From Nanobdellota archaeon (GTDB taxonomy: Archaea; EX4484-52; LFW-46), in contig JAHILE010000040.1 in assembly GCA_018897155.1 (NCBI GenBank), positions 20,157 to 84,156 of the forward strand: a stretch of 64,000 bases of DNA, given 5' to 3'. Of the stretch, positions 1,375 through 60,171 are shown piece after piece. Both the position numbers and the translations under genes were made by a program. The notes under the pieces are model-generated. The model saw only the letters and a program-made list of their open reading frames with translations. It did not search any database and was not told the DNA's origin. Each line of letters starts with the position of its first letter. Within the stretch, counting starts at the first letter, position 1.

Positions 1375-4300
1375 TTACTTCGCATTAAACCTTTCCAGCC
1401 CCAACTGCCTTGCTTTTTTTCCAAACAGGCTGTCAATATCTTTCTCAAGAAGCGAGAACTGCTGAAACAAATATGGCGATATCTTGTACTTTTCAATAAT
1501 ATGCTTTGTAGGCTCAACATATTTCCTTATCGCGCCTTCAGACACCGAAAGCATAAGCTTTCCTCCACAGTAGCACTTCCCGATTAAAGGTACTCTGCGG
1601 TACTTTGCATTACAGGTTGCGCACCGAACTTTCTGCTCTGAAAACGTGCGCAAATTCCCCTTTATGTCGCGAAGAAAATGCTTTGAAATAACCAACTCAG
1701 CCACAGAATCCTTATTCACGGCAACTATCTTCTCTGCAAGACCGAGTTGTGCAGTAACTTTGTCCTTCATGCTGCCAAGCTCCACATACTTTGTCTTAAT
1801 CGGCGCATCATTAACGTCGGCTGTGCCATGAGTGAACTTTATATGAAAGACCTCGGAAGTCTTTATTACATCTGCAACAAGGCGCGGCTTTTTTGTAAGT
1901 TCTGATATTGTTTTATAGTTCATGGTGTCTTCATAGAATTCAAGCGGGTATTCTGAAGAGATATCAACCCGCCATGCCTCATCATCCACTTCCTCAGGAT
2001 TAAGCTTGCTTGTAAGGACGAGTGGCGCATCCATTGTCCTCCCCCCGCGCGTGTCCGGCAAAAACTTACGAGAGAAATTAAGCAATGCATCCATCAAAAG
2101 CATTATTGAGTCTTCGTCGCCATCACAGTTTCCTGCAACAATGCCCGAGCAAATAAGGTTGTGATGCATATCAACAGTTACATCGTAAACATATTTTTCC
2201 CTGTTTTCAATAAACTTCTTGCCCACTATCTTGTCAACAAACGAATCCCCTTCAAGAACTGCTCGCGCAGTGCCTTTCTTTGTGAGCCACTGCTCCAAAA
2301 GTGCTTTGGCGCGAACTTGCTTATCTTCGACAAACCCTATTGTCTCAATATATTTTCTGGCGTCATCACCATATAATCTTATTTTATACGAATGCAAAAA
2401 TTTGGGCTTTCCGTAGAATTTTAAGATTAATTCGCTTTTTATTTCGCGGTTTTCTTCATAAATTGAATGTTTGATGCCCAAAAACATCAAAATTACTGAA
2501 ACAGAATCAATGAGCCACTTATTAACCGAGGTAACATTGACTTCAAGAGTGCTTTGAATGGCGCAGGAGCCATCGCCTGAAAAATATCCTCTTAAAAGTG
2601 CGGCAAGTTTTTCTTTTGGCAAAGAATAAACAAAATTTGGAACTCGTTTGCTTCGCGCGTCCTTTCCAACTTCGAGATAATTAAATAATTCATAAACAAA
2701 CCGCGAGCATATAGTAACTGCATTTCCGGACGTGTTTGGCGTCAAGCCAAAAACATCCTTTATTTTCGTTTCAAGATACGCTTTCACCCGCGCCTTAGTG
2801 GCAGTTATTGAAATCTGATGCGTATTTTTTTGATTTTTCTTTGTATATCCTTCGGCAAGATAAAAGCCCAGAATGCATAAAAAATCCTCGTTAAGAAGAA
2901 TCTCGGGCTTTATAGATATAGAATCCCTTTTGCTTCCAAGAAAATATTTTTTGTTTTCGAATAGATTCTGGCTAAAATGCTCAACAATATCAAGCGGATA
3001 AAACTTTCGATAAACATAATTAGTGAGTGTTTTATAATTCATCCCAAGATTAGCGCTGATTTGCGACAAAATTGTTCCGTTGCCAAAAATCTGCTCTTCG
3101 GTTCTTACCATAACATTTCTGTTATTAACGACATCAAGCAAATCTATTTTCTCAACATCAGATGTAATCGGGTTTTCTATTTGCCACGGTATTAGGACTT
3201 CGGTCGCATCTTCGGCGCGTATTTTTTCACCGCATTTGTTCAATAACAGATGGTCTGGGGTAACAACTATTTTTCTTCCGCACTTAGTTTTAATCTCTAA
3301 CAGGATTTGTGGAGCGGGATGTTTTGAAACATGCGTCATATCCGAAAGCTCGAATTTTTTGGTGAGTTTATTAAAAGCAAATGTTTTCAATCCAGCAATC
3401 GTTTTATATTCTGTTCCAAAAGCGTCTGTTTCAACCCCATCCGTAAGATTCGTCTCCACTAATTCGCGAATAGTTGATAATCTAAACTCTTTTCCATCAT
3501 GTACAATAATTTTTTCGTTGCCAAAAAAACAATTCCTTCTTTTGCCAGCATGCCAGAATGGATGCGCATAACATACTTTTGAACGAGTAAAGCCTACAAT
3601 TCTGCCCACTATGCCTGCAGATGTGTGTGGAGCAAGCCCTACAACCAGCTGACCCACCAAATCCTCTCTTGAGTTCATATTATAATACGGCGGAAGGCTG
3701 TAAAACTTTACAAGAAGCTCGTCGATAAACCTGCTGACATTCAGCATGTAATTTACTGATGAGAACTCTTCATTGTCGGATATGACAATATCCTGTACGC
3801 TCAGCTCAAGAATCTGATTCTCATTTTCAAGCGGTCTGCCCAAATAATCATTCACATAGCCTATGGATTTCAACTTTGCAACAGAAACGCCAAGCTCAGA
3901 TGGCTTGAAGTGTGTCATTGAGATATCAGAAGCATCATATCGTGTAGTGCCGTCCTTATTCACGTAAAGCTCGTATTTTGTACGAAGAACGCCTTTTTCA
4001 AGATATTCCATGCTTCTCTCAGGGCCTGAAACTCCCCTAACGCCTTTGAATAGCTTTGGCAATTGAACAACTGAAATGTTTTTGAACGCCTCATCAAGTA
4101 GCTCTTTCAATTTAATAGTCATCTTACGATATTTTTTTGTAGGCTGGTTGCAGTGCATAGTTGCTTCAACAATGGAATTACATGACTGACAAATATTTCT
4201 CGGAGTTCCGCGCACATTGCATTTTGGGCACATAGAAAATACATTCTCAGCACCGCATGAAGTGCATTTAAAGACCGGAAATTCTGCAGTTACTTTTCCG

Positions 4301-7132: not shown

Positions 7133-7318
7133 AGCCCTGGGCGCGAATTTCACCGGTTCTGGGCAGACATGCGACCTCAACGAAGTTGAAGTCGCTCCTT
7201 CTTTCTTTTCCACCCGGACTTGTCTATTCTTTCTTGAAAAGAAAGAAAAGAAACCATGTTTTGAACGCACGACCTTTACCTTACCAAGGTAACGCTCCAC
7301 CAGCTGAGCTACCAGGGC
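7133..7318 (-). tRNA. tRNA-Thr(GGU) with ~115-nt intron in the T-loop region
   Basis: Minus-strand read: GCCCTGG-TA-GCTC AGCTGGTG GAGC-G-TTACC TTGGTAA GGTAA-AGGTC-GTGCG TTCAA[...]-CGCGC-CCAGGGC. The acceptor, D, anticodon and T stems all pair. The T-loop is interrupted after TTCAAA by an insert with long CT/GA-rich complementary arms. Confidence 0.6.
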
Positions 7319-8289: not shown

Positions 8290-8447
8290 GCAGGGGTAGC
8301 CAAGCGGTCAACGGCGGTGGACTCAAAAATATTGAGTTATAGACCAACACAGGCAATAACTTTAGGAAATCCACTCTCTTAGTGAGTTCGAGGGTTCAAA
8401 ACAGTTTTCAGATAAATGAAAAAACTGTGAAAATCCCTTCTCCTGCA
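8290..8447 (+). tRNA. tRNA-Leu(CAA), long variable arm, two introns (anticodon loop and T-loop)
   Basis: GCAGGGG-TA-GCC..GGC D arm, anticodon stem GTGGA/TCCAC and loop CTCAAA|intron(~41 nt)|A. A long variable arm 'TCTCTTAGTGAGTTC' follows. The T-stem GAGGG...CCCTT is interrupted after TTCAAAA by ~33 nt. The acceptor 3' strand is CTCCTGC. Confidence 0.55.
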
Positions 8448-23257: not shown

Positions 23258-23896
23258 TCATTTCATCTTCCCAACCATAAAGCAATGGTCCTTTTCAAGA
23301 GGATCAAGTTCTATCTGTTCAAGAATATTAAACATCTTTGAAAGCTTCGCGCGCTCTTCTGCATAAATCTGCTGCGGCTTTTTTGCGACATTTATGCTTC
23401 GCGCCTTTACTGCAATCATCATCCAGCCCTGCGGCTTAAGGAAGACTTTTGCATTGCGCATAATGATTTCAGACTGGTCCGGCTGGGCAACGTCGCAGTA
23501 AACCAGATCGACTTTCTCAACAATCTGCGCGTAATTCTCAGGCATCCTTGCATCATCAAGAATCGGCGCGATATTTTTCCTCTGCCTTGCAAGCGGAATT
23601 AAATCGCGCATAGAGCGGCCTGAAAATTCTACGGCATAAATTATTCCGTTGCGCTCAACAATGTCAGAAATATGACTCGGCGTTGTTCCTGTGCTTGCGC
23701 CAAGATAAAGTATCTTCATTCCTTTTTTTATCGGAAAGTTCTTCAGGCCCTTGACAAGCGCCGCCCCGAGCTTTGAGCTAGTGGGGTCCCAGACGCGCCA
23801 TTCCTCCTTTCCCTTTCGCATAATGCGCTCTCCGTAGACTTTTTTTCCGTTCACAAGATTTTTTGTCGCATAGTCGCGCCCGAATTTTTGCATCAT
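23258..23896 (-). CDS. flpA: fibrillarin-like rRNA/tRNA 2'-O-methyltransferase
   Basis: 'ILYLGASTGTTPSHISDIV' and 'VYCDVAQPDQ' motifs. Confidence 0.85.
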   Translation of the reverse strand: MMQKFGRDYATKNLVNGKKVYGERIMRKGKEEWRVWDPTSSKLGAALVKGLKNFPIKKGMKILYLGASTGTTPSHISDIVERNGIIYAVEFSGRSMRDLIPLARQRKNIAPILDDARMPENYAQIVEKVDLVYCDVAQPDQSEIIMRNAKVFLKPQGWMMIAVKARSINVAKKPQQIYAEERAKLSKMFNILEQIELDPLEKDHCFMVGKMK

Positions 23897-23900
23897 AAAA

Positions 23901-24950
23901 TCATTTCCCTCGCTTCATTTTCGAAAGTTCTGCATCAAGCTCTCTTTTGTATTCCGCACCCACTGGCTTGCCTTTGTAAAAATCAACTTTTATCGCCATC
24001 GACAGCTTTGATGCAAGAAGGCGCGCCATTTTCCCTTTCCTCTCAAACGGCGCCTGCTGAACATAATTTGTCTGGAACAGTATGCCGTATTTCGGCGACT
24101 TTCCGCCGGTTACGAGATGGCGGAACAGCGCTTTTTCCGCGCCAAGAATCTGAATTGTAGATGACGGGAATTTGGCAAGCTTAACAAGCGAGCCGGCAAT
24201 AGCCAGGAGCCTTGCCGCAATCACGCTTCCAATAATAGCCGTTGTATTCGGCATGATTTCTTTTAATCGCGACTCGACATATCCCTCTATTGATTTTCTC
24301 TGTGCATACATTGCCTGAAGCGACTTCGCAAGGCTTTGCATCTGCAGAAGGTCTTTCTTTTCTATATCCGCGCCTATAGTCTCTGAAACATCAATTCCTT
24401 TGACATCTTTGCGGTAAAGCTCATCAGCAACATAACTTACCATTTGCTCGCTGTCCTGCATCTTTTCAAGAAGCTCAGGAAAGTAATATCCATACCACTC
24501 GCGCAGGCGTATTGAAAGCAGATTAGTGGTTTTATCCAGCTCGTCAATCGCATTCACTGCCTGTATGACCAGCTTGTCGTTTGAGAAGTCCGAAACCATC
24601 TTTTTTGCGGATAATTCGAGCGCAATAGAAGAAACAAATTCGAAAAGCATATCCCTTGACGCGATTCCGCTTTTTGATGCTATTGTTTCAAGGTTCCTGC
24701 GCAGGTATTCGCCGGCAGGATTCGGAAATTCGTGCTCATATCCTTCCTTTCTCTGCTCAAAAACGATTTTATCTGCCGCAATTTGCGAAAGAAGCTTTTT
24801 TTCGGCGTCGGTTACCGCGTATTCTGAGCATGCGTGCATGCTTTCAGCGGCTTTTGCGCGGTCAAAAAGGACGTGCCCAATCTCCTTGCCAGATGCATCA
24901 ACTACAAATACGCCAAGCGCGCAATACGAAACAAAAATCATGAAAACCAC
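23901..24950 (-). CDS. C/D box sRNP protein Nop5 (Nop56/58)
   Basis: It carries a NOP domain ('GAEKALFRHLVTGGKSPKYGILFQ'), a coiled-coil middle region and a short KK tail. It sits adjacent to fibrillarin as in most archaea. Confidence 0.8.
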   Translation of the reverse strand: MVFMIFVSYCALGVFVVDASGKEIGHVLFDRAKAAESMHACSEYAVTDAEKKLLSQIAADKIVFEQRKEGYEHEFPNPAGEYLRRNLETIASKSGIASRDMLFEFVSSIALELSAKKMVSDFSNDKLVIQAVNAIDELDKTTNLLSIRLREWYGYYFPELLEKMQDSEQMVSYVADELYRKDVKGIDVSETIGADIEKKDLLQMQSLAKSLQAMYAQRKSIEGYVESRLKEIMPNTTAIIGSVIAARLLAIAGSLVKLAKFPSSTIQILGAEKALFRHLVTGGKSPKYGILFQTNYVQQAPFERKGKMARLLASKLSMAIKVDFYKGKPVGAEYKRELDAELSKMKRGK

Positions 24951-40923: not shown

Positions 40924-41101
40924 GCCTCGGTAGCTCAGCTCGGTGGAGCGCGTGACTTGTACGTTAATACAAACGCGAGACTCGTACGCTCGTGATATGT
41001 CTTCAAAGCAAAGATATCACGCGGTCGAGGGTTCAAAAACAGGATTTTGTTTAAAGTGGATAACATCTCAGCATTTCCTGTGGAACTTCCCTCCCGAGGC
41101 T
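40924..41101 (+). tRNA. tRNA-Thr(UGU) with two introns (anticodon loop and T-loop)
   Basis: GCCTCGG-TA-GCTC AGCTCGGTG GAGC. The anticodon stem is CGTGA/TCACG with loop CTTGTA|intron(~55 nt)|A. The T-stem GAGGG...CCCTC is interrupted after TTCAAAA by ~50 nt. The acceptor 3' strand CCGAGGC is perfectly complementary. Confidence 0.55.
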
Positions 41102-41412
41102 TAAACTATTTTTTAAGCTTTTTTTGTAATTGTAAAGCACATTTGAATAATAAAATTACTTGAAAACCTGAAGAATTTACTTAATTTTTCATTATTTTTT
41201 ATAAAATCGTGGGCAGAATACCCACAAATTTATTTGTGGGATGAATGCCGTGCCTCTTTTCAGTTTTTGTGCGAGAGGCAGAAACAGTAAAAACATTTAA
41301 TAGAGTTTTCTGTTCATTCTGGCTCATTAGAGCAATTGGGACTAAGTATCAAGGGGACAATTTTAATTCGTAGGGGAGGGAGCGACCTGTTTTGTTCTTT
41401 TACAAAAGCAAA

Positions 41413-43593
41413 TTATAGTTTTAAGAATTTCCAGTCCGATAAGTTATTCTCATCATAATTGTATCTTTCATTATCGTTATATCTACAACTCTCATCTTTA
41501 AAGATAATAATCCCGCCAAATAGCTTTTTATTATGCTTTTGATTTTGTGTTTTAATGTATTTGCTTAGTGCTTCTGCTTTTTCTTTAGCGACTTTTGCGG
41601 TTATTCCACTTTTAGTATCAAAAATACCTATTCTTCCATCATCAAGCATAATTACAAAATCAACATAAAATCCTCTTTCCACACCTGCATCGTCTTTATA
41701 TTTTACTGCAAGGTATTTTTTATCTGATTCTCCGTTTTTGAACCACCATTTAACAGAATTTTTTGGATTTTCAAGTAGTTTTATGAAATCTTTTTCTGGC
41801 ACACTTTCGGCAGAAATAAAATAAGGTTTCATAATTGCTTTTTTATGTGGCAATTCTTTGTATTTGCTGTTATAAGTTATTAGTTTGGGAACATTCCAGA
41901 CAAGATGCTCTGTTTCTCTTTGTTCTGGCAATCCTCCAACAATCTTGAGTTTGTATTCCTCTTTTGCTTCATTAATGCAATCAGTAAATAACTGATTATT
42001 TTCTTCTCCTAAAATTATCTTTTGAGCAAAAGTTTCATCTTCGATTTTTATTACTTTTTCAAAAAACTTATAGAGTGCTGTTCTTATTCTTCCTTGTGAA
42101 TCAGCAGGAGCAAAAGGAGTACAGCTTCCTCTTACAAATAAGTCAAATCTATGTTGTAATTCAACAGCACTTAACTTAAATTGCATTTCTCCTTTATGTT
42201 CTACTGTTTGAACTTTATCTAAAACCAATATTTTTCCATCAACCATTATTTTAGTTACGAGAGATTTTGGCTTTAGATTTATTTTCTTTGCAAGTTCGCT
42301 TTTTTGTGCAATTTCTAAGAATAATTTTGTAAATTCTCCAGAAAGTCTTGTCTTTTCTCTTTGTCTTATGAGATAGATTGAATTAAGATCAATATTGCTA
42401 TATAATTCTTCTCTTCTTTTTGCTTCGTAAATTGTGATATAATCTTTAGCGACTTCTTCAGTTATGTTAATGTCAGCAAGATTTGTGAATACATAACCTT
42501 TATTCAATTCTTCAGTTTCATAATGCTTAAACTCTGGCATTCTCATTATTCTGCCTACTGTCTGAATGGTAAAGTCCATACTTTGCATATCTCTGAACAT
42601 TACCAGAATGTATGCTCTTGGACAATCCCAACCTAATGCTATAGCTTGTTTGAAAATAAGAACTTGAACATCGTTATCAGGCATTTCAATATTCTCAAGG
42701 TTGGTTTTTTCTTCTGATAAATAAATCCCTAATTTTCCGTTTTCTGTTGTTATTTTGAATTTATCTCTTAAAATTCCCGTAATCTGTTCTTGCCTGTCAA
42801 TAACTCCTGTCTTTTTATCAGGAAGCTGAATTAAAATTAATGGATTGATATCGGATTTTTCTTTTTCTAATAGTTTAAGCATTTCCTGTCTTTTCTTTAA
42901 AGCACATTCAATAACTAATTCATCAGGAGATTTGTCAGAAACTTTTCCTTTGTCTAATTCTGGATTTATGGCAATTTCTTTCTTTATCATTCCCTCTTTT
43001 CTTACATCTTCAAATTCTACAAGAACATTATAAAAAGAATGAATGTGCGGAGTAGCTGAAACTTCCAAAATTACATCGGGATCAATATCATTTATTAAAT
43101 TTCTTGAAGTTTCTGTTTTAGCAGTAAAGTGACTTTCGTCTATAATTAAAACTATTTTTGTGCCGTCTTCTTTCGTGTTTTCAATAATTTTAGATAAATT
43201 TCTTTCCTGTTCATTTTCTCTAATATAAACATTATCTGTTTTGTTTATGCTTTCCCAATTCAAGAACAAAATTTCATCTGGCTCAATTTTATTACCTACT
43301 AAATCTTCAAAAAATTTACACTCTATCGCTCTTGTCGTAGAATAATATTTATCTAATTTTTCTTTACTTTGTGTATGTAATTGTCTTGGAGCTGTCCAAA
43401 TAAAAGCGATTTGCTTTCCATCGTCTCTTCTATCAACAAGTCTTTTAATAAATTCGGCCACCATTAAAGTTTTACCAGAGCCTGTCGGAGATTTAAAAAC
43501 TAAAGTTTCTCTTGAATCTCGATTTAGTAATTCGTTAATCTGTTCTTTTAGTTTTAAAATTGCTTTCTCTTGATAATCTTTAATTTCAATCAT
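41413..43593 (-). CDS. Type III restriction enzyme Res subunit (SF2 helicase + PD-(D/E)xK nuclease)
   Basis: Walker A 'SPTGSGKT', DEAH-like 'LIIDESH' and a C-terminal 'VDFVIMLDDGRIGIFDTK' nuclease motif. Confidence 0.75.
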   Translation of the reverse strand: MIEIKDYQEKAILKLKEQINELLNRDSRETLVFKSPTGSGKTLMVAEFIKRLVDRRDDGKQIAFIWTAPRQLHTQSKEKLDKYYSTTRAIECKFFEDLVGNKIEPDEILFLNWESINKTDNVYIRENEQERNLSKIIENTKEDGTKIVLIIDESHFTAKTETSRNLINDIDPDVILEVSATPHIHSFYNVLVEFEDVRKEGMIKKEIAINPELDKGKVSDKSPDELVIECALKKRQEMLKLLEKEKSDINPLILIQLPDKKTGVIDRQEQITGILRDKFKITTENGKLGIYLSEEKTNLENIEMPDNDVQVLIFKQAIALGWDCPRAYILVMFRDMQSMDFTIQTVGRIMRMPEFKHYETEELNKGYVFTNLADINITEEVAKDYITIYEAKRREELYSNIDLNSIYLIRQREKTRLSGEFTKLFLEIAQKSELAKKINLKPKSLVTKIMVDGKILVLDKVQTVEHKGEMQFKLSAVELQHRFDLFVRGSCTPFAPADSQGRIRTALYKFFEKVIKIEDETFAQKIILGEENNQLFTDCINEAKEEYKLKIVGGLPEQRETEHLVWNVPKLITYNSKYKELPHKKAIMKPYFISAESVPEKDFIKLLENPKNSVKWWFKNGESDKKYLAVKYKDDAGVERGFYVDFVIMLDDGRIGIFDTKSGITAKVAKEKAEALSKYIKTQNQKHNKKLFGGIIIFKDESCRYNDNERYNYDENNLSDWKFLKL

Positions 43594-45337
43594 TCTTGAA
43601 AACCTTCCTATAAACTTTTAAGATTGTTTCTGGAATAGGACATAAAGTAACTTTGTTTTTAATGGTTTTAAATTCCTTTGTCGGCACAGAATCATCATGC
43701 GAGAATACATATACATGGATTTTTCCGTTTATTTTTTCTGCTTCTTTGACAAATTCATCAATATACTCGTCATCAAATACTATTCCTAAATGCAGTTTAT
43801 CATTTTTGAAAATCTTGAATTTCTTTGTGTCTTTGACTTTTTCAAAAGTATTTTCCTTAATGCAAAGCATTTCTGTGCAGTTATCAACCAGTTTACGCTT
43901 GTTTTTATCTGTTTGCTCTGCTTCAACAAAATCTGTTTTATAATATTTGAGATTACCGCCAAGACCTTCGATTTTTTCGTTAGATGCGTTAGTATATCCT
44001 TTAATTATTTTTTGTATTCTTGGATAACATACATCTGAGCAAATATTGCCTTCATTATTAGTGCATAAAATAAATGATAAATCTTGATTGAGTTCATCGT
44101 TTAGTTCCATTACTGCATGGCCTGTAGTTCCTGAACCTGCCATGAAATCTAAGACAACGCCTTTTTCTGGACAAGAATATTTAATTAGTTCTTTAAGTAA
44201 TTTCTTAGGTTTTGGATAATTAAATAATTGTTTACCAAATATATTTCTAAGCTCCTTTGTCGCAGCTTGATTTAAATCAGATTGCATTATTTTTATTCCA
44301 TTTTCGTCTTCTTCAGAATCAATGGCGACTTTTTTTATAACCGATGCTTCTATCCATGTTGATAAAGGTTTAAAGTTAGATTTTAACTCGTTTGCAAACC
44401 GTTTATATTGTGGTGTTCCGTTCTCTTTTTTTGGAAAGATTACTTTACCTGCTTTAATCTCATTTAACATTCTAACTCTCTCAAAACGCCAAACCCTGCT
44501 TGGATTAGCAGGATAAACCTTTCCTGTTTTAGGGTCGGTTATATCATAATATAAATTAGGTCTTTCATCTTTTGTTTTACCGCAAGTAAGATCTCCTGCT
44601 GTCCAAGGGCCCCTAGGGTCGTTATTAGGATTCTTATAGTTGCTTAAATCTTTCTCTATACCAAAAAGAGAGGCTTTTTCTGATTTTTTATAGCAAAAAA
44701 TATATTCATGGTCAGTTGATACTAAATTTTTTGGATCATTTGCTCCACTTCTTCTTTTCCAAACAAAATTAGCTACAAAATTGGTCTCTCCAAATATATC
44801 CTCACAGAGTAGTTTTAATTGTGCATTTTCATTATCATCAATCGAGATAAAAATAATTCCTGTATCTTTTAGTAGATTTTTAGCAAGAGCTAAACGCTTA
44901 CTCATAAAAGAAAGCCATTTACTATGTCTATATCCATCTTCTTTATCTACAAATTTATCATTATACTTAAAATCCTTATTTCCTGTGTTATACGGTGGAT
45001 CTATATAGATAACATCCACAGAATTTTTATGTGTGAAATTAAGAACAGCAAGTGAATGGTAATTATCTCCTTCAATTAAAAGATTAACTGGCTTGTCTTT
45101 ATCTGAATTTATCTCTTTATCTTTTACTTCTGCTAAAACTGGAAACTTATCTTTACTTTCTGGGCTAAATTCTTCTTTAGTCTTTTCGCCTTCCCAGTTA
45201 ATGAATAAGTCAAAATCTTCTTTAGTTTTCTCTCGTTCCCAAACTAAACCGTAAGTTTTTTGCTTCTTTAAAGCCAAAATTTCTCTTATGAGCTCCTCTT
45301 TTGACCATTCAATGTAATTTCTTTTTCCATTAACCAT
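43586..45337 (-). CDS. Type III restriction-modification Mod subunit (N6-adenine DNA methyltransferase, beta class)
   Basis: Motif IV 'IYIDPPYN' precedes motif I 'LDFMAGSGTTGHA'. The gene overlaps res by 8 nt. Confidence 0.8.
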   Translation of the reverse strand: MVNGKRNYIEWSKEELIREILALKKQKTYGLVWEREKTKEDFDLFINWEGEKTKEEFSPESKDKFPVLAEVKDKEINSDKDKPVNLLIEGDNYHSLAVLNFTHKNSVDVIYIDPPYNTGNKDFKYNDKFVDKEDGYRHSKWLSFMSKRLALAKNLLKDTGIIFISIDDNENAQLKLLCEDIFGETNFVANFVWKRRSGANDPKNLVSTDHEYIFCYKKSEKASLFGIEKDLSNYKNPNNDPRGPWTAGDLTCGKTKDERPNLYYDITDPKTGKVYPANPSRVWRFERVRMLNEIKAGKVIFPKKENGTPQYKRFANELKSNFKPLSTWIEASVIKKVAIDSEEDENGIKIMQSDLNQAATKELRNIFGKQLFNYPKPKKLLKELIKYSCPEKGVVLDFMAGSGTTGHAVMELNDELNQDLSFILCTNNEGNICSDVCYPRIQKIIKGYTNASNEKIEGLGGNLKYYKTDFVEAEQTDKNKRKLVDNCTEMLCIKENTFEKVKDTKKFKIFKNDKLHLGIVFDDEYIDEFVKEAEKINGKIHVYVFSHDDSVPTKEFKTIKNKVTLCPIPETILKVYRKVFKND

Positions 45338-45391
45338 TTATTTGTTCCCCTTTATTCTCAATATAACCTATGATGTTTATTAATGTTTTTC

Positions 45392-46030
45392 TTATTTAAC
45401 CATTGTGTTGCATTCTTCTAATCTTTCACAAAGCAAACTGGCAAAACTCAGATATTTTAATGCCCTGTTTTTATCTTTTTGGATAATATTCTCATGTCCC
45501 TTTGGGTTTCTTATACCCATTATTGCACCTGCATAAAGATGCATAAATCCTTCTTGTTCATCTTTATCTGATTGGGATACAAGTCCATTCATTTTTAGTA
45601 GAGGGCTATTTACACTAAAAGCAGTTAGCATAAGACTTTTACCATCCAAGTCTTTGCGACAAGATTTCTCTTTAACAAGATTATTTATTTTCTTAAAAGC
45701 CTCAAAAATTGCTTGAGCATAATGTTTATCATAAAATAATTTTTTACTGACGGATTCTATTTCAGGATGGATATTTAATAATCTAAAATATTCCACTTCT
45801 GTTTTTTTCCCTTCATAGAAATCCGCATTATTTTTTTGAATCCAACCTTTATCCTCTAAACGTAAGAATTTTTTACAGGATTTAAGTTGCATTAAAATAT
45901 TTGAGCAGGTTATTTGATATTCGTCAAAAAGTTTGTTTTTTACGTCGCTTGGCCTTCTATGTTCTAGAAAGTATCCATTTTTCCATAATTCGCTTATTGC
46001 AGTATTTATTTTCATGTTAATCAGATACAT
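45392..46030 (-). CDS. hypothetical protein in RM island
   Basis: A 212-aa ORF with no catalytic motif recognised. It lies on the same strand immediately upstream of mod. Confidence 0.35.
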   Translation of the reverse strand: MYLINMKINTAISELWKNGYFLEHRRPSDVKNKLFDEYQITCSNILMQLKSCKKFLRLEDKGWIQKNNADFYEGKKTEVEYFRLLNIHPEIESVSKKLFYDKHYAQAIFEAFKKINNLVKEKSCRKDLDGKSLMLTAFSVNSPLLKMNGLVSQSDKDEQEGFMHLYAGAIMGIRNPKGHENIIQKDKNRALKYLSFASLLCERLEECNTMVK

Positions 46031-46394
46031 AAGCCCATTTCTTTAATTTTGTCCCATTATTTAGCGTCTTGGTCTTTTTAAGAGAGCCATTCCTAACAAT
46101 ATTCCTTAGTGGGAGCGTAATGTCTGATGCTTTAAAATGGTAGTCTTTTTCTTTTAACTTATCCAACATTTCTTTTACAGTTCTAGGTTGATTAAAAAAG
46201 TTTCCTAAAGAAAGAATCTTCTCAGTAGTGCTTCCTTTTCTGTACCAGTTAGCTAATTTCTCACTTTTCACTTCTTTGGATTTAGACGCTGGCTCTTTGC
46301 GTTCTAAAAGGGTAATTCTTCTTTCATGGTCATCAAGAATTGCCTTAAACTCTTTTTCTGTTATCATCTTTATCATCTCCGAACATAAACCCAC
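46017..46394 (-). CDS. small winged-helix-like protein, paralog 1
   Basis: Its C-terminal half aligns with ORF 46373..46741 (ILxxGFFNxPxxxxE...KKWxYV). Confidence 0.4.
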   Translation of the reverse strand: MGLCSEMIKMITEKEFKAILDDHERRITLLERKEPASKSKEVKSEKLANWYRKGSTTEKILSLGNFFNQPRTVKEMLDKLKEKDYHFKASDITLPLRNIVRNGSLKKTKTLNNGTKLKKWAYVSD

Positions 46395-46741
46395 TTTTTC
46401 TCTTGTTTAATTCTTCTTAATTCCTTACCTTTTACCAATCCTAGAACTATTGCAGATAAGGTGGTAATTGGGATAAATGTTCCTTGTTCTTCAAGCCCTT
46501 GTTTCAATTCAGCCAGACTTTTTGGCTTGTTAAAAAATCCTTCTGCAAGAATCTTTCTGATAGTATCTGTTATAGTTGGTTTTGAATTAGCCTTAGCTTT
46601 GATAAATTTTTTAAATTCTTTTGCAGGAGTTTCAGGAGTTTTTTCATCTTTATATAGATTCATAACTTTTGAAATCTCTTCTGGAGTACCCTCTATAACA
46701 ATTTTAGTCCCATCTTTTGTTTCAATATTTGCTTTAGTCAT
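46373..46741 (-). CDS. small winged-helix-like protein, paralog 2
   Basis: 'TITDTIRKILAEGFFNKPKSLAELKQGLEE...KKWVYVRR'. Confidence 0.4.
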   Translation of the reverse strand: MTKANIETKDGTKIVIEGTPEEISKVMNLYKDEKTPETPAKEFKKFIKAKANSKPTITDTIRKILAEGFFNKPKSLAELKQGLEEQGTFIPITTLSAIVLGLVKGKELRRIKQEKKWVYVRR

Positions 46742-46799
46742 TTTTAATCGCCCTTAATAACATAATAGTGTAATAATGCAATAGTATTTAAATCTTTCG

Positions 46800-47600
46800 C
46801 CTATTTGTCCAGTGGTTCGTAGTTTCGTCGCCCCCTCCCCTGTTCGTCGTTTTTCGTTTAAATTTGTCCCCCTTCTTGAGATTTCACTTTGTGAAATCTC
46901 CTATTGTTAGCTGTCCTTTCAATTCTGTAGGGCATCCATAAATATCATATTCAAAGACATCTTTGCCTTGCTGTTCTTGAATGTATCTCTTAACTTGCTC
47001 TTGTGAAACGTGTCCAGCAGAGCCACAGTAATAACCTCTTGCCCAGAGGTTATCAAAACCTTTGCCGAAGTGCTGTTTATATCCAAGATACCTTAATTCA
47101 GGAAAGCATCGCCTTAATTGTATTGAAGTATTGCCTTTCAGCTTATGAATTATCTTGAAAGGAGTTACTGTCGGCTTTGCACCTACGAATAGATGCAAGT
47201 GGTCAGGCATAATCTCGAATGCCAGATTGCTAATGCTCATTTCTTGGCATTGCCCTTCAATGATTGCTTTCAGAACTTCAACAACCTTTCCAGTCAATAC
47301 TGGCTTCCTGTATTTTGGAATCCAAATAATGTGGTAATTGATGTTGTATTTGCAATGGTGAGATGTCCTCACAGTTGCGATTTTACTCTCGATTTTGTGC
47401 ACTTCTGGATTGAAGTGCGGATATAGTTTTTTAGTCATAGCGACCACCTCATGCTGAAGGTGGTTGCTTGTATCGTTAGGGGGTTCTCGTTTAGCGAACC
47501 ATACATTAAACTTTTAGCGTAGCGACCTCTGCAAGAGGGAAAAGTTTAAGTTAAATGGTTTGCGTGAGAAACCCCCAGCTTTAGCTGGATTTATTTTGGG
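46800..47600 (-). mobile_element. IS200-like insertion (TnpA only) with subterminal hairpins
   Basis: A perfect hairpin GAGATTTCAC-TTT-GTGAAATCTC (46878-46900) overlaps the tnpA stop. Imperfect palindromes GGGGGTTCTC/GAGAAACCCCC lie at 47474-47582. No tnpB was found, and the boundaries are approximate. Confidence 0.45.
46884..47447 (-). CDS. tnpA: IS200/IS605-family transposase TnpA (HUH Y1)
   Basis: 'YHIIWIPKYRKPVL', 'DHLHLFV' (HuH), 'LKGNTSIQLRRCFPEL' and 'WARGYYCGSAGHVSQEQVKRYIQEQ'. Confidence 0.85.
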   Translation of the reverse strand: MVAMTKKLYPHFNPEVHKIESKIATVRTSHHCKYNINYHIIWIPKYRKPVLTGKVVEVLKAIIEGQCQEMSISNLAFEIMPDHLHLFVGAKPTVTPFKIIHKLKGNTSIQLRRCFPELRYLGYKQHFGKGFDNLWARGYYCGSAGHVSQEQVKRYIQEQQGKDVFEYDIYGCPTELKGQLTIGDFTK

Positions 47601-57748: not shown

Positions 57749-59221
57749 ATGGACGTTAAAAGATTGCTGAAAGAGCCAAGAATTATATTTCTCGCAGTCC
57801 TGCTCATAGCCTCGCTTGCCGTAATTGGGCCTCATTTTGTGTTTGCTCCGGGAGAGCCTGCGCAGCTTGAGACAAAAATTGTCAAAGGCCTTGATCTTCA
57901 GGGAGGGGTGCGCGCGTTGATTGCCTTAGACAACGCGACAGACGAACAGTTTCAGCAGTCGATTTCAATATTGTCAAATAGGATCAATTATTTCGGCTTA
58001 AAGGAAATGAATATACGCCCGGTGATTATAGATAACACACAATATATACAGCTTGAGCTTGCGGGCGCGAATGAGGCCCAGATGCGCGACCTTCTTGAAA
58101 AGCAGGGGAAATTTGATGCCTATATAGACCGGCATGTTTCTTTATCCGACGGAACCGGCGTTTTGAAAATTGGCGGGATTGATTTTGCAATTTCTGAAAA
58201 TAATGGCACAATAACTGTCGGAAACAGCACGGTTTCAGAAAACCAGTCGTTTGCACTCGATGTTTCAGGGACAAAAATCGACATAAAGTACCAGAACAAA
58301 ACAAACAACATCATCCTTCTTTTTGCAAAGGTGTATGCTGGAGCAGACATCAAGCAGATTTATCATGATGCCCAGCATTCAAATGTTGTGCAAGGTTCGG
58401 GCGGCGCGTGGATTTTTCAGTTCTCGATAGTTACTTCAACCGATTCTGCGGCGCGGTTTTCAAAAATAACGCAGGATGTACCTGTTGATTTTGCAGGAAT
58501 CCAGAGGCAAAATTATCTTTCAAGCAAGATCTATTTATATCTTGATGACAATGAAATGGATTCATTAAGCATATCTTCTGATCTGAAAGGCAATTTCCTC
58601 ACGCAGCCGTCAATTTCAGGACCTGGTGAAAGCAAGCAGGATGCTGTTGATAAAATGAAAAAGCTTCAGGCAATTCTTGAAAGCGGCGCATTGCCTACAA
58701 AAATAGAGCTTGTAAGCGTTGCGGAAGTTTCGCCAACTCTCGGGGCGCAATTCATGAAAATGGCTATAGTGGCGATTTTTGCAGCAATTCTTGTTGTGAG
58801 TGTTATAATTTATTTAAGGTACAGAGACCCTAGAATAGTTATTCCGATAATACTTACATCCGGCGCAGAAGTGATAATTATATTTGGAGTTGCTGTGTTG
58901 ATAAAGTGGACAATAGATCTTGCATCTATTGCAGGCATTCTTGCAGCAATAGGTACCGGTGTTGATGCGCAAATAGTTTTAGTTGACGAGTCGCGAAAAA
59001 AGCATGCTGCTGAGATGAGCCTTAAAAGAAAACTCGATCAGGCGTTCTTTATAATTGTGTCTTCGGGCGCAACTATGATTGGCGCAATGTTGCCGCTTCT
59101 TTTTATCGGTGCAGGTGTGATAAAGGGCTTTGCATTTACAACAATACTCGGCGTGTTTATCGGAATTTTTATAACAAGACCAACATTCTCAAAGATTTTG
59201 GAGTATGTTCGCGCAGAATAG
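57749..59221 (+). CDS. secD: protein-export membrane protein SecD
   Basis: 'GLDLQGG' followed by a periplasmic-like domain and a 6-TM region. Confidence 0.75.
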   Translation: MDVKRLLKEPRIIFLAVLLIASLAVIGPHFVFAPGEPAQLETKIVKGLDLQGGVRALIALDNATDEQFQQSISILSNRINYFGLKEMNIRPVIIDNTQYIQLELAGANEAQMRDLLEKQGKFDAYIDRHVSLSDGTGVLKIGGIDFAISENNGTITVGNSTVSENQSFALDVSGTKIDIKYQNKTNNIILLFAKVYAGADIKQIYHDAQHSNVVQGSGGAWIFQFSIVTSTDSAARFSKITQDVPVDFAGIQRQNYLSSKIYLYLDDNEMDSLSISSDLKGNFLTQPSISGPGESKQDAVDKMKKLQAILESGALPTKIELVSVAEVSPTLGAQFMKMAIVAIFAAILVVSVIIYLRYRDPRIVIPIILTSGAEVIIIFGVAVLIKWTIDLASIAGILAAIGTGVDAQIVLVDESRKKHAAEMSLKRKLDQAFFIIVSSGATMIGAMLPLLFIGAGVIKGFAFTTILGVFIGIFITRPTFSKILEYVRAE

Positions 59222-59251
59222 TCGGCGGTTAGAAATTGGAGTGGCCCCGTT

Positions 59252-59498
59252 GAGATTTATTCATGCCGAATCAGCAGCGGACAGGTGACTGCACCGAAGG
59301 TGCAATCGCCCTAAGCGCCGACCGATTACGCGGCCGTTGAACTCAAGACCTCCGGCTCACTAAAACGCTAAGCGCAAGTAAGCACTTGGATTTGGGCAGG
59401 ACAAACTGTTCGCCCAAACGTCATATAAGACCGGCGCTCCTTCTGGCGGAATTTCGCGAATTTTTGGCAAAACCCGAAACCAGCTGAGCTACGGGACC
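59252..59498 (-). tRNA. multi-intron tRNA (~247 nt), anticodon UAU (Ile) if canonically spliced; introns in D-loop, anticodon loop and T-loop
   Basis: Minus-strand read: GGTCCCG-TA-GCTC AGCTGGT[39 nt]G GAGC-G-CCGGT CTTATA[~65 nt]A GCCGG-AGGTC-TTGAG TTCAA[~85 nt]CTCAA-CGGGGCC-A. All four stems pair once the three inserts are removed. Confidence 0.4.
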
Positions 59499-59577
59499 AC
59501 TAAAACCCTATATTGGCGGAGTTTTAAAAAGGTTTCTTATCTCAGATATATAAAAACCGGCTTCAAATAATCAATCT

Positions 59578-60171
59578 ATGAAAGGAAAATTTATTGTGGT
59601 TGAAGGCCTGGATGGAAGCGGAGCATCTACGCAAGTGGCTATGCTTTCCGAATATCTGGCAAGCAAAGGATATAATGTTCTTGTGACAAAAGAACCGACA
59701 AATAACCTCATCGGCGGGCTTATAAGGGGGCAATTGACGCACGAATGGAAATCAAATCCTGAGTGTTTGCAGCTTCTTTTTGCAGCAGACCGCTCGCACC
59801 ACATTGAAAAAGAAATAATTCCGGCGCTTGAGAAAGGCATGCTTGTCATATCCGACCGCTATATGTATTCCTCACTTGCTTTCGGCTCGATAGATTGTGA
59901 TATGGAATGGCTGAAACATATAAATGCAAAATTCTTAAGGCCTGATGTTTCCATAATACTGAACGTTTCGCCTGAAGTTTCTGTTGAACGGATAGGGCGA
60001 ACGCGCGCAGGTTTTGAGCTTTTTGAGGACAAGTCGAAGCTTGAAAAGGTTCGCACAGCTTTTGATGCGTTGGCAAAAGAAACGAAAGGCATTACAGTTA
60101 TCGATGGCACTATGCCGGTAAATAAGGTTTCCATGGCGATTGTGCGGGAAGTTCAGAAGGTTCTGCAATAG
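59578..60171 (+). CDS. tmk: thymidylate kinase
   Basis: P-loop 'VEGLDGSGAST' plus 'DRY' and LID region motifs. Confidence 0.85.
   Translation: MKGKFIVVEGLDGSGASTQVAMLSEYLASKGYNVLVTKEPTNNLIGGLIRGQLTHEWKSNPECLQLLFAADRSHHIEKEIIPALEKGMLVISDRYMYSSLAFGSIDCDMEWLKHINAKFLRPDVSIILNVSPEVSVERIGRTRAGFELFEDKSKLEKVRTAFDALAKETKGITVIDGTMPVNKVSMAIVREVQKVLQ

Follow-up and report, generated by a model that had tools for sequence, protein, structure and literature searches.

In archaea, tRNA genes containing as many as three introns have been documented, chiefly in Thermoproteales (PMC4033280, PMC4090602, PMC8450103), and the non-canonical intron sites on record include 20/21, 56/57 and 59/60 (PMC4090602). The multi-intron tRNA genes of Pyrobaculum and Thermofilum were found with SPLITS (Sugahara et al. 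2007/2008, as reported in PMC4033280, PMC4090602 and PMC8450103). For DPANN archaea the expected types of tRNA splicing endonuclease are alpha4 with an L3 loop, alpha-beta or epsilon2. The L3-loop endonucleases of DPANN archaea are associated with marked disruption of tRNA genes, and undiscovered disrupted tRNA genes have been anticipated in DPANN genomes (PMC5829648). In the searchable literature, there was no report of a three-intron tRNA in DPANN.

N. equitans and K. cryptofilum use a tRNA-Ile with the anticodon UAU instead of TiaS and tRNA-Ile2(CAU) (PMC6000648, PMC8450103). In three ARMAN lineages UAU is likewise found in place of TiaS and tRNA-Ile2(CAU). ARMAN-2 (Micrarchaeum) has a pre-tRNA-Ile(UAU), which bears a 25-nt intron at 37/38, and a pre-tRNA-Cys with an intron at 59/60, both of which are cut by its epsilon2 endonuclease (PMC3239211). 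Beyond ARMAN and N. equitans, our literature search revealed no report on TiaS or tRNA-Ile(UAU) across DPANN.

Here we describe a tRNA-Ile(UAU) gene with three introns, which is located in a 64,000-nt stretch of DNA (the window) of a DPANN archaeon.

Location and structure of the gene

The locus lies in a gap of 356 nt, with an archaeal-type secD (57749-59221) on one side and the gene for a dTMP kinase (59578-60171) on the other. A sequence-only reading of the window had placed a tRNA gene of 247 nt at 59252-59498, with introns of ~39, ~65 and ~85 nt in the D-loop, the anticodon loop and the T-loop. A tRNA gene is indeed present there, and orthologues, junction motifs and in silico splicing agree that all three introns are needed. 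Its extent had to be corrected to 257 nt, at 59242..59498 on the minus strand; a start at 59252 drops the last 10 nt, AACGGGGCCA, which are the 3' strand of the acceptor stem. The proposed intron sizes were corrected as well: in gene order, the introns measure exactly 37, 66 and 80 nt and the exons around them 21, 17, 21 and 15 nt. Read on the minus strand from 59498 to 59242, the gene starts with GGTCCCG-TA-GCTC-AGCTGG and finishes with TCTCAA-CGGGGCC-A. CCA is not encoded at its 3' end. The features of the locus are as follows:

59521..59535, minus strand: promoter-like element AAACC-TTTTTAAAAC of BRE/TATA type, 23-37 nt upstream of G1
59242..59498, minus strand: whole tRNA-Ile(UAU) gene, 257 nt, with G1 at 59498 and the discriminator A73 at 59242 (sequence reading, in silico splicing and orthologues)
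59478..59498, minus strand: exon 1, 21 nt; 5' strand of the acceptor stem, U8 A9, 5' strand of the D-stem, D-loop AGCUGGUU
59441..59477, minus strand: intron 1, 37 nt, D-loop position 20a/21; bulge-helix-bulge motif of relaxed type (junction comparison)
59424..59440, minus strand: exon 2, 17 nt; G21, 3' strand of the D-stem, G26, 5' strand of the anticodon stem, loop CUUAUA
59427-59425, minus strand: anticodon UAU, within exon 2
59358..59423, minus strand: intron 2, 66 nt, in the anticodon loop at the canonical site 37/38; two internal hairpins (junction comparison)
59337..59357, minus strand: exon 3, 21 nt; A38, 3' strand of the anticodon stem, variable loop AGGUC, 5' strand of the T-stem, UUCAA
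59257..59336, minus strand: intron 3, 80 nt, T-loop position 58/59; long GC-rich hairpin (junction comparison)
59242..59256, minus strand: exon 4, 15 nt; A59 U60, 3' strand of the T-stem, 3' strand of the acceptor stem, A73

The gene is neither a split nor a permuted tRNA gene, as its four exons are colinear on one strand within 257 nt. ARAGORN gave no match on the native locus, with and without the intron option and at several sensitivity options. Rfam likewise gave no match at the gathering threshold or at E <= 10.

Group I and group II introns were rejected as the nature of the inserts, which measure only 30-91 nt and had no Rfam match even at E <= 10. On direct reading, no conserved C or D boxes of a C/D-box guide were found in the introns; a CUGA in intron 3 falls inside a species-specific insert. 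BLAST searches with all eight tRNA introns as queries, run against the window and between the introns themselves, gave chance 7-13-mers only. This lack of sequence similarity ruled out intron transposition or repeats.

Host and upstream region

Proteins identical to the dTMP kinase, SecD and HisRS of the window are present in several NCBI MAGs labelled "Nanoarchaeota archaeon", and the tRNA locus recurs unchanged at four loci from those MAG assemblies. The window has a G+C content of about 41%. It also encodes fibrillarin, Nop5, Orc1/Cdc6, a family-B DNA polymerase (PolB), PcrB, CDC48, geranylgeranyl reductase and an archaeal SecDF. Based on the identical proteins labelled Nanoarchaeota and on the archaeal gene content, the host is a DPANN archaeon. 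The suggestion that the UAU anticodon could serve as a taxonomic clue fits this label.

The element AAACC-TTTTTAAAAC was nearly unchanged and located at the same distance in all 8 of the 8 upstream sequences compared, with varying sequence on its flanks. Downstream of most gene copies T-runs were found. From their sequence, the element looks like an archaeal BRE/TATA promoter and the T-runs look like an oligo-T terminator.

Orthologues and conservation

The orthologue set was assembled from dTMP kinase homologues and their contigs, and from a metagenome scan with the exon-3 21-mer, which recovered 4 metagenome loci. The following copies of the tRNA-Ile(UAU) gene were obtained:

L005 (= L006, L014), 2167-2384, minus strand: orthologue, neighbouring kinase with 89% identity
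L135, 1173-1386, minus strand: orthologue, neighbouring kinase with 89% identity
L010, 1854-2045, minus strand: orthologue, neighbouring kinase with 73% identity
L012, 1119-1350, minus strand: orthologue
L013, 1034-1250, minus strand: orthologue
L011: 3' fragment of the gene only
L136/L137: copy ending within intron 3 at the end of the locus, neighbouring kinase with 87% identity

Six distinct full-length sequences were compared, i.e. the window and five other species-level relatives (L005, L010, L012, L013 and L135). The four exon blocks and the sites of the three inserts were shared by these six as well as by the fragment L011 and the truncated copy L136/L137. The insert lengths ranged from 30 to 40 nt for intron 1, from 52 to 91 nt for intron 2 and from 32 to 80 nt for intron 3. 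The latter measured 32-41 nt in the other species compared to 80 nt in the window, and its GC-rich hairpin was found only in the window's species.

Pairwise identity of the exons was 93-100%, that of the aligned introns 61-85% with 3-75 gap columns, and that of the neighbouring dTMP kinase across those species 73-89%. This is the pattern of purifying selection on the exons, with the introns free to vary. Exon 2 was invariant. The only change in exon 1 was G7->A in L135, where C66->U restores the pair (G7:C66 -> A7:U66); the only one in exon 3, U50->C in the same sequence, is compensated by A64->G (U50:A64 -> C50:G64). In exon 4, the window alone carried G70 (U3.G70); A70 was present in all others (U3:A70). 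A compensatory change from U:A to C:G was also found in hairpin 1 of intron 2. Every orthologue belongs to a rather close relative; a large part of the structure therefore does not vary and is uninformative either way.

When the invariant exon-3 21-mer was searched in the GTDB species genomes, it gave no match; hence, the clade is absent from those representatives. The synteny was lost in relatives whose dTMP kinase had 87-88% (L007, L138, L136) or 61% (L139) identity.

Junction motifs and folding of the precursor

The three junctions shared a common geometry in the six orthologues. The central helix measures 4 bp, and on either strand the predicted cut follows it at a distance of 2 nt in the 3' direction. 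All belong to the bulge-helix-bulge type, which is near-canonical at 37/38 and relaxed at the D-loop and T-loop junctions.

The motif of intron 2 is composed of the anticodon stem, the central helix C32UUA35/UUAG, the bulges UA↓U and UG↓A (the arrow marks the cut) and the outer helix GACG/CGUU. A U34.U mismatch was present in the central helix of four sequences; L012 and L135 carried a perfect UAAG.

In the motif of intron 1 the D-stem is followed by C16UGG19/CCAG, a 5' bulge UU↓U, a 3' bulge AA↓G and then CGG/CCG. This outer helix was replaced by UGG/CCA in L012/L013 through a compensatory change (C:G -> U:A). The motif counts as relaxed, as its 3' bulge is opposed by the unpaired A14 and G15. 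L012/L013 had a G.A as the last central pair. The exact cut in the D-loop is predicted to be 20a/21, and a shift by one base would keep the product length.

For intron 3, the central helix is formed by G53UUC56 with GAAU or GAAC, and the cut sites are AA↓C (5') and AA↓A (3'). Here, the 5' site sits in a 4x2 internal loop adjoining a conserved intron stem. The helix includes G53 and thereby opens G53:C61; it contains either G.U or G:C, varying among the orthologues. Unconstrained folding recovered it in L010, L012 and L135. The T-loop of the product is robust, since the mature UUCAAAU is identical for any cut pair from 56/57 to 58/59. An alternative register (UUCA/UGAA with a cut at 59/60) was rejected, as it leads to a 9-nt T-loop here and is not conserved in the orthologues.

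The 257-nt precursor folded at -110.1 kcal/mol (z = -4.86 compared to shuffles). In the orthologue alignment 95.3% of the cells of its 53-pair structure were paired, compared to 33-50% when the partners were slid by 1-3 columns, and the covariation score was reached by none of 500 shuffles. Compensatory double changes were seen at five pairs, two of them in the exons, one each in the acceptor stem and the T-stem, and three in intron helices. When all three strict motifs were enforced, the fold was 4.9-12.1 kcal/mol above the minimum-free-energy fold. In the unconstrained fold of the window precursor positions 32-36 pair with GUGAG instead. Cleavage would thus depend on an enzyme that stabilises the conformers to be cut, as is usual for bulge-helix-bulge motifs.

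Predicted spliced product and decoding of AUA

Removal of the three introns in silico resulted in the 74-nt product GGUCCCGUAGCUCAGCUGGUUGGAGCGCCGGUCUUAUAAGCCGGAGGUCUUGAGUUCAAAUCUCAACGGGGCCA. ARAGORN identified such spliced 74-mers as tRNA-Ile(tat) with stems of 7/4/5/5 bp in each of the six distinct orthologue sequences (6/6). By direct reading, the standard tRNA bases U8, A14, G15:C48, G18G19, G26, U33, A37, G46, G53:C61, U54U55C56, A58 and A73 are present. The sole unusual base is a G at the final position of the D-loop (G21). The uninterrupted D-loops of tRNA-Thr(GGU) and tRNA-Thr(UGU) of the window finish likewise (...GGUG-GAGC), which supports the predicted D-loop junction.

The anticodon UAU, as initially proposed from canonical splicing at 37/38, is supported. 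CUUAUA followed by the intron is invariant, and orthologues, junction motifs and in silico splicing are in agreement. According to the canonical position and spacing of intron 2, the anticodon is U34 A35 U36. The isotype Ile was assigned from the anticodon and A73 only. The anticodon arm is the same as in the tRNA(UAU) gene of an Aenigmarchaeota MAG (L116). The product has features of a tRNA-Ile3(UAU), namely an encoded UAU in an Ile-type elongator tRNA with A73, and AUA as a regular sense codon.

In 19 long ORFs of the window, AUA accounted for 347 of 844 Ile codons (41%), corresponding to 32 per 1000 (347/10,745 codons). This share calls for an efficient AUA decoder, and the gene is therefore probably essential for translation. 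It presumably encodes the only AUA decoder of the organism. Neither tiaS nor tRNA-Ile2(CAU) was seen within the 64-kb window, which covers little of the genome. No Pfam/NCBIfam match to a splicing endonuclease, RtcB ligase or TiaS was obtained for the 47 window ORFs examined (>=150 aa).

Other tRNA genes in the window

ARAGORN reported only tRNA-Arg(GCG) and tRNA-Cys(GCA) in the window. Further tRNA genes were obtained by a scan for acceptor/T-stem pairing, which was used in place of an uninformative D-arm regular expression, followed by in silico removal of T-loop inserts:

7318..7134, minus strand: tRNA-Thr(GGU) with a 113-nt intron at 59/60; 25.8 bits in Rfam, below threshold
8290..8446, plus strand: class II tRNA with introns at 37/38 and 59/60
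40924..41100, plus strand: tRNA-Thr(UGU) with introns at 37/38 and 59/60

Of the six tRNA genes in the window, four are therefore split by introns. Each of these four carries a T-loop intron, and none was reported at default thresholds. The register UUCA/UGAA with a cut at 59/60 does fit the other tRNAs of the window.

Comparison with known multi-intron and UAU-decoding tRNAs

A second genome scan was performed with a degenerate pattern (D-arm...CUUAUA). The matches listed were mostly uninterrupted bacterial tRNA(UAU) genes, chiefly of the candidate phyla radiation. Among them, at least five intron-bearing tRNA(UAU) genes of DPANN or unclassified archaea were found (L057, L102, L116, L128 and L130). 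A 37/38 intron was present in the MAGs of Aenigmarchaeota (L116), Nanoarchaeota (L102), Anstonellaceae (L130) and Micrarchaeota (L128) as well as in an unclassified archaeal MAG (L057). The Micrarchaeota gene appears to carry a T-loop intron, too. None of the five intron-bearing archaeal genes among the matches listed contained a D-loop intron. The sequence-only reading had regarded tRNA-Ile(UAU) as confined to a few lineages such as Nanoarchaeum and Korarchaeum. The gene is less rare than assumed, considering ARMAN (PMC3239211) and the further DPANN genes found here.

The gene resembles the tRNA-Ile3(UAU) of N. equitans and K. cryptofilum in its genome-encoded UAU for AUA. Moreover, the Korarchaeum gene also has an intron, and the MAG analyzed here is labelled Nanoarchaeota at NCBI. 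However, a three-intron layout has not been reported for the genes of these two species, and the absence of tiaS was shown in their complete genomes. With ARMAN-2 it shares a DPANN host, a UAU isoacceptor with the canonical intron, and T-loop introns with relaxed motifs in the same genome. The Ile(UAU) gene of ARMAN-2 was described with the canonical intron only, whereas D-loop and T-loop introns are found here in addition.

Like the genes of Thermoproteales, the gene carries up to three endonuclease-type introns at 37/38 and at non-canonical sites, which in Thermoproteales include 20/21 and the T-loop and here are 20a/21 and 58/59. The relaxed bulge-helix-bulge junctions and the fact that ordinary tRNA finders overlook the gene are further common features. 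Whereas the Thermoproteales are crenarchaeotes, the gene belongs here to a DPANN archaeon of mesophilic type (about 41% GC). Similar introns recur across many genes of Thermoproteales, which has been read as transposition; here, the eight introns are unrelated. Thus, the locus does not belong to a Thermoproteales/TACK host with related introns across its tRNA genes. The gene had also been called an extreme multi-intron tRNA. It does reach the known archaeal maximum of three introns, but it does not exceed it (PMC4033280, PMC8450103).

In a eukaryotic nuclear tRNA-Ile(UAU) gene with three introns the same three arms of the same isoacceptor are interrupted, and bulge-helix-bulge-like motifs are needed there as well. 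The introns of that gene were shown to affect pseudouridine formation at positions 34/36/55. As it is eukaryotic and nuclear, the resemblance is certainly convergent. Three-intron tRNAs (Thermoproteales) and UAU decoders (TiaS-lacking archaea) are thus both known.

Proposed processing and alternative explanations

We conclude with a probability of about 0.88 that the locus is a functional AUA-decoding tRNA-Ile(UAU) gene of a DPANN archaeon, which is spliced at three bulge-helix-bulge-type motifs. Transcription from the conserved, putative BRE/TATA-type promoter would lead to a precursor of ~257 nt. The archaeal tRNA splicing endonuclease would then cut the three motifs and remove 37 nt (20a/21), 66 nt (37/38) and 80 nt (58/59). 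Finally, an RNA ligase would join the four exons to the 74-nt tRNA, to which CCA would be added afterwards.

A real three-intron tRNA might still differ from this scheme in its junctions or in its decoded identity. The D-loop cut could be shifted by one base (...GGUUU-GAGC), which on direct reading still yields a 74-nt product, the tRNA could be a redundant decoder beside TiaS and tRNA-Ile2(CAU), or U34 could carry a modification that alters its reading. Differing junctions would be in line with the relaxed D-loop and T-loop motifs and with strict conformers that are not minimum-energy folds. However, the T-loop product is unchanged for cuts from 56/57 to 58/59, the 37/38 spacing is canonical in every orthologue with an invariant CUUAUA, and G21 agrees with other tRNAs of the same genome. 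With regard to identity, the published TiaS-lacking archaea use exactly UAU (PMC3239211, PMC8450103). Departures of this kind are in our view improbable.

There is even less reason to consider the locus a decaying tRNA pseudogene or relic with three insertions that is no longer processed. Standard finders miss it, the window copy has the U3.G70 wobble, and its T-loop insert is twice as long as those of the relatives, all of which could be signs of decay. Nevertheless, the exons are 93-100% identical next to a dTMP kinase of only 73-89% identity while the inserts diverge freely, and those exon changes that occur are compensatory. Furthermore, the universally conserved tRNA bases are all intact, the upstream promoter-like box is conserved like the motifs at the junctions, and AUA is a major codon. 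We consider decay very improbable. Three freely placed deletions can force many sequences into partial cloverleaves, so that the cloverleaf might be taken for a chance construct from unrelated intergenic sequence. However, independent metagenomes contain the same four exon blocks beside the same genes, their stems covary, and the fold z-score is -4.86. The comparative data already refute a chance construct, to which we give virtually no weight.

Possible role of the introns and implications

An intron at 37/38 occurs in every archaeal tRNA-Ile(UAU) gene examined or reported, i.e. in this clade, Aenigmarchaeota, Micrarchaeota, other Nanoarchaeota, ARMAN-2 and Korarchaeum (for the scan, among the matches listed). 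The positions paired with its 3' end, 32-35, include the wobble base U34. It is conceivable, though rather unlikely, that this intron is retained for an intron-dependent modification of U34/U36 that stops UAU from reading AUG, with the D-loop and T-loop introns then ordering the maturation. If true, this would parallel, in archaea, the intron-dependent pseudouridines 34/36 of eukaryotic tRNA-Ile(UAU).

A likelier corollary concerns tRNAs that seem to be missing. In 208 complete Nanobdellota genomes missing tRNAs were explained by split genes or loss (preprint 10.64898/2026.05.13.725050). tRNA-Trp and tRNA-Val are among the tRNAs reported as absent from complete Nanobdellota genomes. The chances are roughly even that overlooked multi-intron genes, rather than split genes or true losses, explain many of the tRNAs reported missing from DPANN/Nanobdellota. 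The presence of four intron-split genes among six in 64 kb is in agreement with the expectation of undiscovered disrupted tRNA genes in DPANN (PMC5829648), and in the case described here a probably essential gene is hidden from ARAGORN and Rfam.

The three-intron layout, so far documented in Thermoproteales and two algae, is extended to a DPANN lineage, and UAU decoding is added to more DPANN groups. Because a single molecule of the 257-nt precursor combines two relaxed motifs with a near-canonical one, it would be a natural substrate for studying the specificity of DPANN endonucleases.

Intron 3 and the upstream spacer of tRNA-Ile(UAU)

The T-loop intron of the tRNA-Ile(UAU) gene (intron 3, 59257-59336) was 80 nt long in the window species and 32-41 nt in all relatives, a twofold difference. 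The extra length was due to a GC-rich extended hairpin (…GCACCUUCGGUGC…), of which no second copy was found elsewhere in the 64-kb window.

In the spacer upstream of the gene, a second conserved AT-rich box, TTTTTATATAT (minus strand), was located at 59545-59555, between the promoter-like box of the tRNA gene and the start codon of the dTMP kinase gene. The box was also present at the equivalent position in the relatives' loci L010, L012 and L013, which carry orthologues of the tRNA gene. Viewed on the plus strand, it is situated ~23-33 nt upstream of the dTMP kinase ATG, the spacing at which a leaderless mRNA would have its promoter. Because of this position, the spacer resembles a divergent promoter pair.

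Hidden tRNA genes in the window

Three further intron-containing tRNA genes were hidden in the window:

7134-7318 (discriminator at 7133), minus strand: tRNA-Thr(GGU), one intron
8290-8446, plus strand: class II tRNA (long variable arm), two introns
40924-41100, plus strand: tRNA-Thr(UGU), two introns

The sole intron of tRNA-Thr(GGU), 113 nt in size, is inserted in the T-loop at 59/60, with UUCA/UGAA as the central helix and a strict 3' bulge (AU|U) adjoining the T-stem. The 5' part of this gene scored 25.8 bits with Rfam, below the gathering score of 29, and ARAGORN recovered the gene only after intron removal.

One intron of the class II tRNA (~41 nt) lies in the anticodon loop, the other (33 nt) at 59/60. 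This tRNA would read as Leu(CAA) if spliced at 37/38 with A73; ARAGORN placed the intron differently and called Ser(cga).

In tRNA-Thr(UGU) the introns are ~54 nt (37/38) and 50 nt (59/60) long. This gene is directly adjoined by a low-GC island (41400-47500; 30-35% GC vs ~41%) with the following genes:

41413-43593: ResIII/SNF2-type helicase
43586-45337: N6/N4 DNA methylase
45392-46030: Hypoth_Ymh protein
46884-47447: IS200-like transposase

The region resembles a mobile restriction-modification/defence island that has integrated next to the tRNA gene.

The window also encodes the C/D-box methylation machinery:

23258-24950, minus strand: side-by-side genes for fibrillarin and Nop5

The tRNA introns contained no recognisable C/D-box guide.

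UAU genes in other genomes

The genome-contig scan for UAU genes yielded at least 120 loci (L015-L134). Among the matches listed, uninterrupted anticodon-UAU tRNA genes turned up very often in bacteria of the candidate phyla radiation (Saccharibacteria, Parcubacteria, Peribacteria, Uhrbacteria and others) and also occurred in some Bifidobacterium, Chloroflexota and Ignavibacteria. The archaeal matches included the following:

L128:3912-4070, Micrarchaeota MAG JAZDDV010000036.1: tRNA-Ile(UAU), judged by eye

By the same visual inspection, it seems to have one intron at 37/38 and another in the T-loop, at 59/60, with a UUCG/CGAA central helix. The micrarchaeotal gene would be a two-intron counterpart of the three-intron tRNA-Ile(UAU) of the window.
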